Shown piece by piece: positions 16,940 through 55,910 of a DNA stretch of 64,000 bases (positions within the stretch are counted from its first letter, which is position 1; every line of letters starts with the position of its first letter). This DNA comes from Octopus vulgaris (Eukaryota). The position numbers and the translations under genes are program-made. Where the stretch lies: NCBI GenBank assembly GCA_951406725.2, contig OX597821.1:22444001-22508000 (forward strand), read 5' to 3'. Below the pieces are notes generated by a model. It was not told where the DNA came from. It made no database searches and saw only the letters and a list, made by a program, of their open reading frames with translations.

Positions 16940-17268
16940 CATCTTTTACTTGTTTGTCATTAGACTGGCCATGCTGGAGCACCACCATGAACTTTTAGTT
17001 GAATGAATCAACCCCTGTACTTATTTTTTTAAGCCTGGTACTTATTGCATCAGTTTGCCGAACCACCAAGTTATGGGGATGCAAACACACCAACACCAGT
17101 TGTCAAGTGGTAGTGGTGCACAAACACAATGACACACATATACACTTACACCGCATATATACACAATGAGCTTCTTTCAGTTTCCATCTACCAAATCTAT
17201 AGTAAAGGACACTTGCCCAAGATACCTCGCAGTGTGACTGAACTATGTGGCTGGGAAGCAAGCTTCTT
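16940..17268 (-). mobile_element. SINE family A host copy, interrupted; its head resumes at 19083-19115
   Basis: SINE sequence stops at GGAAGCAAGCTTCTT and resumes at 19083 as GGAAGCAAGCTTCTTACCACACAGCC. Confidence 0.85.
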
Positions 17269-19082
17269 TATTTCATGAAAATTGGCTATAAAGGCCTTAT
17301 ACAGAGGGGACAGTGCAAGGCGGGGACAAAAAATACAAAGCAAATGGAATAAAATTATGTAAGGAAAGAGGAAATGAAGTCGCTCTGACCCCCCCTCCCA
17401 CCTCCGGGCGACTTCATTGAACCCTTTGCAACAGCATTTGAATTTCCATTTGCAACCAACTTTAGAATATAATTATTTACATTTTACTATAATTAATCCA
17501 CATCTTTTTTTCAAAGTGTCTATATTATCATTATCATCATCATCGTTTAACGTCTGCTTTCCATGCTAGCATGGGTTGGACAGTTCAACTGGGGTCTGGG
17601 AAGCCCGAAGGCTGCACCATGCCAGTCAGATCTGGCAGTGTTTCTACAGCTGGATGCCCTTCCTAATGCCAACCGCTCCGTGAGTGTAGTATATTTCTTT
17701 AAAATGTCTATATACCTTATTCTTTCCGGCATTATGCTGGTGTCTATTCTTTTGTACTACCACATGCAGTCATAGTTTCCCATATACTCATGCACCTTCC
17801 ACAGGCTATTAAGGTCCATCAGCATGCAATAATTGTTCTCGGGCAGACCCTTTACACCTGCTATATCCACCTTGACTTTTCTGTCCCACAAATTTACCTC
17901 GTTATCCAGTTCCTTATTCTGTCCATTATACATAAATACATATTTTTTCTTACAGGGCAGGTGTGGGTAACTTTGAGGCTCCTGTGTGTTTGTAATTGTT
18001 TTTTTGTCAGACTGGGCATGGGCAGGGTTGGTGTCTAGGAAGTGGTTGGGGTAAAGTGGGTATGGGTGGGCGCGGGTTGGGTCATTCTTCACCATGTGTC
18101 TTTTTCTTTTCTTGTTCTCTGTTTCTTCCTCGATGGTCATATCCTTTTCCTCCATGGGCTGTGGAGCACTTACCACTCTTTCACTCTCCCCAGCCTTTTC
18201 CAGTGGTGGAGGGCATTCTGCTCTAATGTGGCCTGAAGGGCCACATTTATAACGCCACAGAATTCTTCCCTCCACTCTAACTTTCAAAGTAGTTTCACCC
18301 ACTAAGATATTTTCTACCATCTTTTCCAGGTCCTCCTCTGTGACCTGTATCATCATTTCAAGGGTTTGTCCTCTCCAATTCCTTTTGGGTGTTCTGGTGG
18401 CCTGCAGGACCACAACCTTCTCCTCCATGCCCAGCAGTATGGCAGCCACCAGCCAGGCTGTATTCACTTCTGGTGGTATGTCTTCCACCTCAACCCTGGA
18501 ATTATGCCTCCCAAGGTACACAGGCAGAAGTATCACCTCATCTGTCTTCAGCGGTGTGGCTTAGTACAGTCTGGCAGTTGCTATCTCCTTAAACTGCACC
18601 TCTACTGTTCCACACTTTTATTCCCTGGCAAGGTATGATATCTCCTGCCAGGCTGACCTCAGTGCCTTTTCCACCTATGCCTCTGACACTACTTCAATTT
18701 TCCTTGTTGCTGTAGCATAGGTTCTATAGACAATCGTCCTTTCTTCCTTGTCCTTTAATACTTTTTGTGGGGAGAACATCTTCACATTATTCCCCTCCCT
18801 TTCAAGCATTTCCTTGAACTCACTCAACTCTTCCAGATTGATTTCTTCAATTTTTTTCTCTAGCTGCCACTGCATCATTCCTCCTCTCCATTTCCTTGTC
18901 CGTCTTGTTTAAGTACTCAACCAGTTCCTCTTCAGACAGATCACATTTTAGAGAAGAATACTTCAACTTCTCGCTCAACACCCTTCCATTACACAAGAGG
19001 GAAAACGTCGCTCCGCCAGGACAGCCAAGAGAACACATGTATACCAAACAAATCCAACAATGCAACTGAACAGCCATAAACC
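17269..19082 (-). mobile_element. ORF1-only Tx1/L1-type non-LTR retroelement (HAL1-like), decayed
   Basis: 15-bp TSD (17254-17268, 19083-19097); broken ORF ~18990-17757 with a charged coiled-coil-like N-terminus, RRM-like RVEVEDIPPEV and degenerate knuckle VRVEGR...RYKCGPSGHIRAECP; no ORF2 between the stop and the 3' end. Confidence 0.75.
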
Positions 19083-19297
19083 GGAAGCAAGCTTCTTACC
19101 ACACAGCCATGCCTGTATACATGAATATATATATATGTATGCATAGCTGCATGGGTAAGAAGTTTGTTTCCAACCGCATATTTCTGGGTTCAGTCTCACT
19201 GCATTGCATCTTGGTCAAGTATCATCCTGAGCTGATCAAAACCTTGTGAGTAAATTTTGTAGACAGAAACTGAGAGAAACTCATGGCTCTGTATTTG

Positions 19298-19625
19298 TTA
19301 GTTAGTTAGTCAATTTTTCGGCTCAAAAAGCAAAAAAGCAAGGCCATGTAGGGGGACATGGAGTTATGTACAGGGTGGTGTTCATGTAAAAAGTTCAGGC
19401 CACTTGTGGTCAAGGGAGACTTTGAACCGAGCGGTCGTCGGCATCTTCACCATCTCGTCCGGCAGCTTATTCCATGGATCCGCTACCCAGACAGAGAAAG
19501 CCCCTCTCCTTCGATTGAGATGAAATCGTCGCAGATAGAGCTTTTTGGAATGACCCGCAGCCGACGCTCTGGAGCAGGAGTGAAGAACAGCTCCTTCGAG
19601 AGGTTACACTTTCCGCTTATGATGT
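19298..19625 (-). mobile_element. CR1-type LINE 3' fragment with (TAAC)n tail
   Basis: Near-identical to the 3' part of 55350-55910. Confidence 0.85.
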
Positions 19626-19959: not shown

Positions 19960-20222
19960 ATGTTACCAGTAGCGCTTACCTGTGATGTATGCAGCAAAGT
20001 CTGCAAGAGCCATTCCGGACTTGGGTGACATTTAAAAACCCACAAGAATCTTCCATGGGTTAGGCCAAAAACATGGATTTAGTTTGCAGTCTTTGCAGCG
20101 AACTGTGTCAGTCTCTTGCTAGCTTCATGAGTCACTCTCAATCTCACATTCATAGGAACAATCAGTTATAAATCAACCTGTCGGCAATGGACCGGCTCAG
20201 CTAACATGTTGGCAGCCATCAT
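19960..20222 (+). mobile_element. RTE-type LINE C-terminal relic (two C2H2-like fingers)
   Basis: CDVCSKVCKSHSGLG*HLKTH from 19981, then VCSLCSELCQSLASFMSHSQSH; the CxxCxxxCxSxxGLxxHxxxH pattern is typical of RTE ORF ends; in-frame stop present. Confidence 0.6.
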
Positions 20223-20735
20223 ACAGGTGTGGCTGTGTAGTAAGATGGGGGGGGGGATAAAAAGGAAAAAACGATTGGTGGGCATCGCTTTTTCACCCCC
20301 ATTAATCATCATTTTCATTTTTCATTTCATATAACATTATGTCTGTGTCCAGTCCACAGCTTCCTATTTCTATGTAAGGCCTTTATGGCCAATATAATGA
20401 AATAAAGAAGCTTGCTTCCAGATTCAGTCCTACTGTGTGGCACTTTTGCCAAGTGTCTTCTGTAGCCTCAGGCCAACCAAAGCTTTGTGAGTGGATTTGG
20501 TAGACAGCGACTGAAAGAAGCCCGTTATATGTGTGTGTGTGTATGTGCCTGTCACGCCACCACTTCTTGACAACTGGTGTTGGTCTATTTACATTCCCAT
20601 AACTTAGCGGTTCAACAAAAGCACTGATAAATTATGTAACAGGTTTCAAAAAAAGTACTGGGATTGATTTGTTTGACTAAAATCCTTCAAGGTGGTACCT
20701 TAGTATGGCCACAGTCCAATGACTGAAACAACTAA
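20222..20735 (+). mobile_element. SINE family A copy interrupted in its head by a ~160-bp retroelement 3' end (20246-20404)
   Basis: GGCTGTGTAGTAAGA | insert ending TAAGGCCTTTATGGCCAATATAATGAAATA | AAGAAGCTTGCTTCC. Confidence 0.8.
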
Positions 20736-39737: not shown

Positions 39738-41079
39738 CACTATACCAAGAGTGAAGAAGTTCTTTTTTTTTTTTTATTGGCGGTGCTCCAGCATGGCCAC
39801 AGTCACACATGACTAAAACAAATGAAAGAAAAAAGAAGTCAAATTACTTGTGCAGAAGAAATTGTTGGGTTACATCTATGCTGAGAGAAATAACTTTTTA
39901 ATTTTACAATTTTACAAGTATGTAGATTATGTTACATTATTACTCTTGTGGTCTTGAGGCTTATCCCTTTTGTTGTCCTGTTTCTATAGAATTTCATTGT
40001 CTTTGTTTCATTTAATTGTGAAAATAATGAAGAATTTAGTAAAACAACTTTGTATGAAGCTGGTGTTTGGAACACAACTTAATATGAAATTTTGATGGAA
40101 GTTTTTAATTTAGATCACTTTAAGATACAAATATTGCATTGTAAAACCAGGAGTGGTCTCAGGTGGGTTGGCACCAAAAGGGTTAAACTGTTTTTTTTTC
40201 TTTAGAATTTTTTTAGAGATTTTGTCAGCAAGGAATTTCCCACCACTGATCTATGCTGTTGCTTGATCAGCTACCTCTTGCAGTCAAAGCCTCTTCAAAT
40301 CACACCCTACTACCTTGTGAAAAGAAGACTTATGTCTTAGGTTTGTCACAACCCTCCAGGATTGTTAGGATGGTGCTTGTCAAGGTTTCTGTTTCTTAAA
40401 AGGATACACACATTGGATGATATTTTTGTCTTTTATTTTTTGCCTGTTCCGCTCATTAGACTACAGCCATGCTGGGACACCGTCTTGAAGGGTTTAGTCA
40501 AACAAATTGATTCTAGTATTTTAAACTTGGTTCTTATTCTATTGGTCTCTAATTGCTGAACCATTAACTTATGGGGATGTAAACAAACCAACATCAGCTG
40601 TCAAATGGTGGTGGTGGTGAGAGGACACACACAAGGACATGCTCCCACCCAGTTTCTTTGTACTAAATTTACTCGCAAGCTATGGGTTGGCTCAGGGCTA
40701 TTGTAGAAGACACTTGCCCAAGGTGCCGTGCAGTGAAACTGAACCTGAAACCATGTGTTTGCCGACTGAGCTTCTTAACCACACAATCATGCCTACACTT
40801 GAATTTAAAAGAAACAAAACTAGCAACACACACAGGTGACTCTAATATGGTGGATCAGAGCTGCCTGAAGATAAACAACACCGACAATTTTAATAACGTG
40901 GACCACTTAACCTAATAAATTGAAATAATTAGTCTATGTTTAATGAGAACACTGTGAACCTCCCCACTCATTGAGAGATAATTGTGGATAGTAGTCGTTT
41001 GCAGCAGCAATGCTCATTTAACTTAATTTATTTGCAAAAGGTGTGGTGGGGCAGCATTAAATATATGTATACATGTATA

Positions 41080-41310
41080 GGCAGCAAGCTGGCAGAAACG
41101 TTAGCGTGCCGGGCGAAATGCGTAGCCGTATTTCATCTGTCGTTACGTTCCGAGTTCAAATTCCGCCGAGGTCGACTTTGCCTTTCATCCTTTCGGGGTC
41201 GATAAATTAAGTACCAGTTACGCACTGGGGTCGATGTAATCGACTTAATCCGTTTATCTGTCCTTGTTTGTCCCCTCTGTGTTTAGCTCCTTGTGGGTAG
41301 TAAAGAAATA
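41080..41310 (+). mobile_element. SINE family B, young full-length copy
   Basis: tRNA-like head, central domain, tail ...CCTTGTGGGTAGTAAAGAAATA. Confidence 0.9.
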
Positions 41311-42268: not shown

Positions 42269-42495
42269 CGGCGAGCTGGCAGAAACGTTAGTGCGCCGGG
42301 CGAAATGCGTTGCCGTATTTCATCTGTCGTTATGTTCCAAGTTCAAATTTCGCCAAGGTCAACTGTGCCTTTCATCCTTTCAGGGTCAATAAATTAAGTA
42401 CCAGTTATGCACTGGGGTCGATGTAATCGACTTAATCCGTTTCTGTCCTTGTTTGTCCCCTCTGTGTTTAGCTCCTTGAGGGTAGTAAAGAAATA
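42267..42495 (+). mobile_element. SINE family B, full-length copy within (TA)n
   Basis: Near-identical to 41080-41310. Confidence 0.9.
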
Positions 42496-45624: not shown

Positions 45625-45950
45625 GTTAGTTAGTTAGTTAATTTTTGGCTCAAAAAGCAAAAAGCAAGGCCATGTAGGGGGACATGGAGTTATGTACAGG
45701 GTGGTGTTCATGTAAAGAGTTCAGGCCACTTGTGGTCAAGGGAGGCTTTGAACCGAGCAGTCGTCGGCAGCTTCACCATCTCGTCCGGCAGCTTATTCCA
45801 CGGATCCGCAACCCGGACGGCGAAAGCCCCTCTCCTTCGATTGAGATGAAATCATCGCAGATAGAACTTTTCGGAGTGACCCCACAGCCAACGCTCTGGA
45901 GCAGGAGTGAAGAACAGCTCTTTCGAGAGGTTACACTTTCCGCTTACGAT
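45625..45950 (-). mobile_element. CR1-type LINE 3' fragment with (TAAC)n tail
   Basis: Near-identical to 19298-19625. Confidence 0.85.
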
Positions 45951-55349: not shown

Positions 55350-55910
55350 TGTTAGTTAATTTTTTGGCTCAAAAAGCAAAAAAGCAAGGCCATGTAGGGG
55401 GACATGGAGTTATGTACTGGGTAGTGTTCATGTAAAGAGTTCAGGCCACTTGAAGTCAAGGGAGACTTTGAACCGAGCGGTCGTCGGCAGCTTATTCCAC
55501 GGATCCGCAACCCGGACGGAGAAAGCCCCTCTTCTTCGATTGAGATGAAATCGTCGCAGACAGAGCTTTTCGGAATGACCCCGCAACCGACGCTCTGGAG
55601 CAGGAGTGAAGAACAGCTCCTTCGAGAGGTTACACTTTCCGCTTATAATGTTGTGAGCAAGAATGAGATCACCATGGCGCCGTCGTTTTTCTAGAGAATA
55701 AAGGTCGAGCGTCTTCAGCCTTTCTTCATAAGACAAATTCTTGAGACCAAGAACCATGCGGGTAGCCAGCTTCTGGACTCTTTCAAGGATGCTGTATGTC
55801 TTTGAGGAGACAAGGAGAAGAGGCTTGAATCCCGTACTCCAATATGGGTCTCACCAGCGTGACATAGAGCGGTAGGAATATGGTTGCTGTGAGCATTCCG
55901 GATGACCGTC
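55350..55910 (-). mobile_element. CR1-type LINE 3' fragment (ORF2 C-terminus)
   Basis: LYVTLVRPILEYG and LSYEERLKTLDLYSLEKRR...RLRGHSEKL...FSVRVADPWNKLP, characteristic of CR1 ORF2 ends; frameshifted. Confidence 0.9.

Follow-up and report, generated by a model that had tools for sequence, protein, structure and literature searches.

The insert at positions 20246..20404 of the window (the whole 64,000-nucleotide stretch of Octopus vulgaris DNA analysed here) is probably the tail of a 5'-truncated ORF1-only non-LTR element, one of a family that lands at a single base in the head of a SINE and that likely gets there with the endonuclease and reverse transcriptase of an L1/Tx1-type relative with the same landing base. 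The host SINE copy lies on the forward strand. Its 5' part (20222..20245), delimited by comparison with intact heads, contains the A-box-like TGGCTGTGTAGT and closes with the target duplication AAG(A) (3–4 bp, 20242–20245). This left flank reads GTGTGGCTGTGTAGTAAG(A), so the duplication amounts to AAG or AAGA only. The forward-strand insert is the 159-bp, 5'-truncated 3' UTR of an ORF1-only element, 91% identical to the copy L022 over 139 bases. It includes the hexamer AGCTTC (20358..20363), which is complementary to GAAGCT in the target word and predicted to pair with read-through RNA (probability 0.97), and a terminal GGCC-TTTAT-GGCC hairpin (20378..20390), which was found by alignment and folding and is part of what it has in common with a second element at 17269. 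Its 3' end, TAAGGCCTTTATGGCCAATATAATGAAATA (longer form GGCCAATATAATGAAATA), abuts AAGAAGCTTGCTTCC at 20405, where the 3' part of the host SINE resumes (20405..20728, of the old AAGAAG type and with a short deletion that follows the target word).

The second element (17269..19082, reverse strand) is an ORF1-only element of 1,814 bp including a nested repeat; it belongs to a different subfamily and is full-length, which had gone unnoticed earlier. Its 5' junction is at 19082/19083, and the 15-bp target word AAGAAGCTTGCTTCC is duplicated on both flanks: the 5' copy (19083..19097, reverse strand) is preceded by the SINE 5' part, to about 19115, and the 3' copy (17254..17268, reverse strand) is followed by the rest of the SINE. 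The ORF1 core (18210..18845, reverse strand) is 38% identical to ORF1 of the autonomous element described below (tblastn, E 3.6e-44) and is interrupted by several stops; a reverse-strand fragment of another short repeat (17526..17693, approximate limits), recognized from its sequence and its own ~17-bp duplication, is a later insertion. The initial annotation had described an insert of ~160 bp with the same junction and relative orientation as at 17269, and both hold: each element has the same junction and orientation relative to its own SINE. It had also stated that the two loci are not duplicates. They are alike only in their last 37 bases (84% identity), which means that neither duplicates the other. 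The upstream parts differ as described; the hairpin reported there is weak, with z scores of −1.9 (20246 insert) and −2.1 (17269 element) against single-base shuffles, and in the 20246 insert it depends on a G run within the first ~17 bases that is absent from the other aligned copies. The two matches of the 19-base tail motif (17269 and 20404) lie 3.1 kb apart, with only 106 in 2.8 Gb; being of different subfamilies, they point to a local hot spot or to chance.

There is strong support, from the genome-wide count of the bases that follow the 3' end, for the proposal of the initial annotation that these elements target the SINE head between its A-like and B-like boxes. Exact matches to the 19-base tail motif number 106 (reversed control, 0), and 70 of the 91 old-type ends among the matches listed, classed by eye, join the same SINE-head base; at position 4 of the target word, 68 of the 70 have A, 1 has T and 1 has G (also by eye). 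The other 21 are off-site or unreadable; the off-site copies examined mostly begin AAG, several with their own 11–17 bp duplications. A search from the target side gave 172 junctions, and at 28 of 30 loci inspected the upstream sequence was element-like and came from many subfamilies; the tail and head patterns of these searches were exact, so that diverged or off-type tails are under-counted. Inserts at the site show 5' truncation at different points, a fixed 3' end and a target-site duplication. The site can be written GTGTGGT^AAG[A/T]AG, with a precise 3' end lacking poly(A) and target duplications of 3–17 bp. By the yardstick for target-specific families in the consulted part of a survey of Tx1 elements, namely more than 20% of flanks of one type (PMC4494074), the octopus families are target-specific, with 77–97% (70/91 listed old ends and at least 97/100 young ends) compared with the threshold of 20%.

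The putative autonomous partner emerged from one junction locus that carried the end of an ORF2 (zf-RVT); from there, 150 scored matches were found, many with open frames of 1,140–1,150 codons. The young autonomous element is 5.44 kb long and has two ORFs. ORF1 contains a zf-CCHC, and the 1,133-aa ORF2 of the partner copy L111 contains Exo_endo_phos, RVT_1 and zf-RVT, all of these domains scoring above cut-off. The best solved (PDB) relative of the young ORF2 is human L1 ORF2p (E 4e-67), and its nearest named homologue is from Argonauta hians (64%). The apurinic-type endonuclease, the reverse transcriptase, the C-terminal zinc motif and the upstream ORF1 are those of the L1 group of non-LTR elements; no Tx1-named reference occurs among the 120 listed ORF2 homologues, and the Atlas matches, as names only, were called both LINE-1 ORF2 (0.97) and Transposon TX1 149 kDa (0.96). 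The mean difference among thirteen full-length young copies is 1.3%. Among all 100 young autonomous tail matches, at least 97 join the SINE target word, 99 read AGTAG and 0 read AAGAAG; none of the 100 has a poly(A) tail, and SINE body sequence follows the junction in about 95. From the shared site, tail and timing, it is likely that such an ORF2 cuts this site and moves the ORF1-only RNAs. For the old subfamily of the 20246 insert, the search for an intact contemporary partner returned two decayed autonomous-type tails at AAGAAG (L051/L081 and L059/L130) and no intact copy.

Full-length ORF1-only copies with the old tail type are 1.5–2.2 kb long. ORF1 homology was detected in 23 of 31 short-element stretches and ORF2 homology in 0 of 31 (E 0.01; for 17 of the 31, the last 1.5 kb only), that is, ORF1 is encoded and ORF2 is lacking in these stretches, as in HAL1-like elements. 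ORF1 identity to the autonomous element is 21–30% in the subfamily of the 20246 insert and 35–41% in the 17269 group, and the two fall on two deep ORF1 branches of a 29-row tree. Ten copies of the former subfamily differ by about 17% over their last 150 bases, a figure inflated by flanking sequence in one truncated copy. A second ORF1-only tail exists in two spellings: the older is followed by AAGAAG in 22 of 27 cases (AAGGAG in 1, AAGTAG in 1, none in 3), and the younger by AAGTAG in 29 of 29. Only 2 of these 29 young ends are followed by SINE body, and 17 clearly stand before the 5' end of another element. Random use of empty heads would give far less stacking than this, and its source would be template jumping, co-transcription or unequal crossing-over. 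Young ORF1-only elements form head-to-tail arrays at G000:C5:78746208-78756184 (L148-L153), where six 3' ends are about 1,985 bp apart, and at G000:C10:101175558-101186115. The young ORF1-only elements upstream of the ends L125 and L116 have a near-identical 3' end and ORF1s on different branches, which suggests tail swapping; the L125 copy retains an open ORF1 of 415 aa. In one off-site case (L028/L040), an extra AAG stands at the 3' junction before a 14-bp duplication, as if derived from read-through RNA.

The target word changed with time, from AAGAAG in old families and the old SINE type to AAGTAG in young families and the young SINE type. Exact intact heads number 11,099 of A type and 88,251 of T type, and at an A share of 11% among them the probability of finding 0 AAGAAG in 100 young autonomous ends is 7e-6; the A share is higher once diverged heads are counted (12 of 43 heads in the flanks retrieved). 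The A-type heads are older, with 5.0 versus 2.6 mismatches in 32 bases (12 A and 31 T heads). Tail clusters with nearest-neighbour identity of 99–100% are all of T type and those at ≤97% nearly all of A type, in a sample in which some loci were picked for A. The initial annotation had considered AAGTAG a possible escape variant and had suggested comparing insertions into the two spellings. The comparison speaks against escape: the young families insert into AAGTAG (99/100 AGTAG for the autonomous tails, 29/29 for the ORF1-only tail), which means that AAGTAG is not immune and that the family moved there. Occupancy of the old exact heads is about 2.5% (172 vs 6,667), which puts little pressure on the SINE and makes escape unlikely as a driver. 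The family likely followed its target as the SINE spelling changed, rather than being escaped.

The short, A-rich duplication of 3–4 bp at the 20246 locus could be taken to mean that the shared junction arose by chance, through A-rich microhomology or by copying of one ancient composite. Target duplications are present at both ends, at off-site insertions as well, which argues against a microhomology accident of the kind that the initial annotation had allowed for; the truncation points and flanks differ, many subfamilies are represented, and duplications reach 11–17 bp elsewhere. With the junction counts (70/91 listed, at least 97/100 and 29/29), chance and composite duplication are refuted and have next to no probability left. 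It is also very improbable that the SINE is a bystander, the true target being a tRNA gene or another host sequence to which the head is merely similar. The head is tRNA-like in its box-like motifs, and other site-specific elements target small-RNA genes, according to the part of PMC8869645 consulted; against this, SINE body lies beyond the junction in ~95 of 100 young ends, the target word follows the SINE subfamilies, and the head is not called a tRNA (ARAGORN predicts none in the window, and one young copy compared with Rfam matched no tRNA family). Somewhat less remote, and still unlikely, is an arms race in which the SINE escaped by exchanging AAGAAG for AAGTAG and the element drew level only afterwards. 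AAGTAG follows only 1 of the 70 on-site old ends, the T type, the younger of the two, now predominates, and a SINE source copy would have its promoter boxes separated by an insertion. Yet few source copies were at risk at an occupancy of ~2.5% of the old exact heads, the old families may predate most T-type copies, and the SINE subfamilies are distinguished by several further positions away from the target site. Targeting of the SINE head itself, by a family that followed the SINE's spelling, remains the preferred reading.

How the RNA contributes to this targeting can be approached from its two ends. The 5' copy of the target word has TAACC as its last letters in 53 of the 55 young copies that are full-length. 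These include 12 loci, paired by coordinates, at which the 3' copy differs (TTACC, TTACG, TTATC and others), and none has a 5' copy that follows a non-TAACC 3' copy; at one locus, the same private change occurs at position 8 in both copies. The constant TAACC and the shared private change together indicate that the first part of the word is a true duplication and that at least its last 5 bases are likely RNA-borne. Such letters would rebuild the site at the 5' end, which fits the head-to-tail arrays. Recurrent variants of the 5' junction, seen also at L115 and L123, are an extra T (TTTGCTAACC, 13 of 55 full-length copies) and GTCTAACC (3 of 55 and L123). Toward the 3' end, AGCT[T/A]C is present in 69 of 89 rows, of which 64 have it complementary to their own target and 5 show a mismatch; the 89 rows represent few lineages, with some loci picked for AAGAAG, and the 64 are not independent events. 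The 20 rows without the motif comprise 8 of the 17269 group (still on site), 11 decayed copies and 1 false row. The motif lies about 79 bases from the end in autonomous elements and 41–49 bases in ORF1-only tails, and at two different distances it must have changed at least twice. In 7 of 7 motif-bearing tails folded, it is predicted to pair with the first read-through bases (probability 0.94–1.0). One autonomous copy (L084) combines the old motif with the new target, and this single copy hints that the target changed first and the motif afterwards. A separate test for conversion of the 3' junction by read-through RNA gave the downstream letter of the other subfamily in 5 of 25 inserted heads and in 0 of 11 intact TAACC heads, numbers too small to carry weight.

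These features raise the possibility, which we hold as doubtful, that the endonuclease reads a short core only, while the UTR motif and the end letters pick the SINE subfamily and specificity is inherited through the RNA. The match of the motif to its own target at two distances and the partly element-borne 5' target copy would fit, as would the locus L114, with AAGAAG on its 5' side and AAGTAG on its 3' side. The consulted part of PMC7265360 proposes for SART1Bm and R1Bm that the RNA anneals to the DNA of the target, target-like letters in or behind the 3' UTR, much as in octopus, determining where reverse transcription begins; the motifs of those elements, however, pair with the bottom strand after it is nicked, whereas the octopus motif has the opposite polarity (top strand, read-through RNA). 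Moreover, the motif is missing from 8 ends of the 17269 group that are nonetheless at the site, is decayed in 11 more and mismatches in 5 of 69, and the predicted fold onto read-through RNA fully accounts for it. That a LINE lineage is partly RNA-programmed in its site choice, the motif and the letters at both RNA ends switching with the site and tracking SINE subfamilies, is accordingly no more than a tentative suggestion.

Under the preferred reading, in which an enzyme-led family follows the SINE, the ORF2 endonuclease would nick the bottom strand opposite GTGTGGT^AAG, the nick would prime reverse transcription at the fixed RNA end GAAAUA, and the top strand would be cut up to about 16 bases downstream. 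Nick, priming and top-strand cut are the established steps of target-primed reverse transcription. ORF1-only RNAs would borrow the autonomous enzyme in trans; full-length RNA would start within the target word, rebuilding the site at its 5' end so that later elements could insert in front; and the enzyme's preference would have followed SINE turnover, the UTR motif being altered later in a way that kept the read-through pairing. Box-like motifs flank the target site in the SINE head. Pol III promoter function depends on the spacing of the A and B boxes, and an insertion that parts the A-like and B-like boxes would be predicted to silence that SINE copy. Contigs from four runs, compared with the junction in a check for expression, did not span it by the criterion applied, a result that counts neither way. 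The target SINE, which we take to resemble octopus SINEs, has a tail that ends in (TAAAAGAG) repeats. As a candidate passenger at its own site it was rejected: its tail joins there in 0 of 15 genome-wide matches (T-type word only).

Insertion into other mobile elements has precedents in the Tx1 clade. The consulted part of PMC4494074 describes Tx1 in Tx1D (Xenopus), Tx1-Mar in Mariner-N4_AMi, Tx1-8_Crp and Tx1-4_AMi in LTR elements, and Tx1-9_AMi in Harbinger; the targets that it lists are piggyBac, Mariner, LTR, Harbinger, U2, U5, 5S, satellites and microsatellites, with no SINE named there. The octopus elements resemble this clade (PMC4494074, same part) in their apurinic-type endonuclease and reverse transcriptase, a fixed site in a mobile element and non-autonomous passengers sharing the site, and differ from what is described there in that the target is the promoter region of a SINE, the passengers are ORF1-only and the target word changed with the target subfamily. 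They resemble mammalian HAL1 (half-L1) as non-autonomous L1-group elements that keep ORF1 only (PMC5753468, in part), and unlike HAL1 as portrayed there, they are site-specific, form two deep ORF1 groups and are stacked before each other and before the autonomous element. In an octopus species, 13 recently active L1-Tx1 families have been reported, in a text whose consulted part does not contain the word "target" (PMC13282606). A SINE-targeting Tx1 element, or this system, was unreported in the literature searched; a record in Repbase, Dfam or SINEBase may exist.

Gag-only passengers beside full elements and head-to-tail arrays are known from Drosophila HeT-A with TART/TAHRE, and Chlorella Zepp inserts into earlier copies of itself. 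HeT-A/TART/TAHRE and Zepp target chromosome ends or themselves; the octopus target, by contrast, is a dispersed SINE. Compared with these precedents, the octopus set is a variant in which site-specific elements of L1/Tx1 type aim at a SINE head, are accompanied by passengers that have only ORF1, and have switched target word in a way that can be dated. The usual relation is thereby reversed: here a SINE provides a LINE, and the ORF1-only parasites of that LINE, with safe landing places dispersed through the genome. Old as well as young stages of this one targeting system are preserved as a dated series, in families, in target words and at hundreds of junctions, which makes it testable how a retrotransposon endonuclease shifts its specificity and what share the RNA has in this. 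Some young copies retain an intact ORF2, so that assays of the enzyme are possible; these would be relevant to site-specific gene insertion by means of non-LTR elements.

Two further repeats of the window were noted. A second SINE (41058-41310 and 42270-42495) has a tail much like that of the autonomous element, TGTCCTTGTTTGTCCCCTCT...GAAATA. Among the first 100 of its 28,727 ends, 0 join the site type found at 20405, and about 20 join GGTATTTC in its own head; it is probably a second, self-targeting system. A 231-bp repeat, presumably resembling the 3' end of a CR1/L2-type LINE, is present in three copies (19326-19556, 45652-45882 and 55372-55602).
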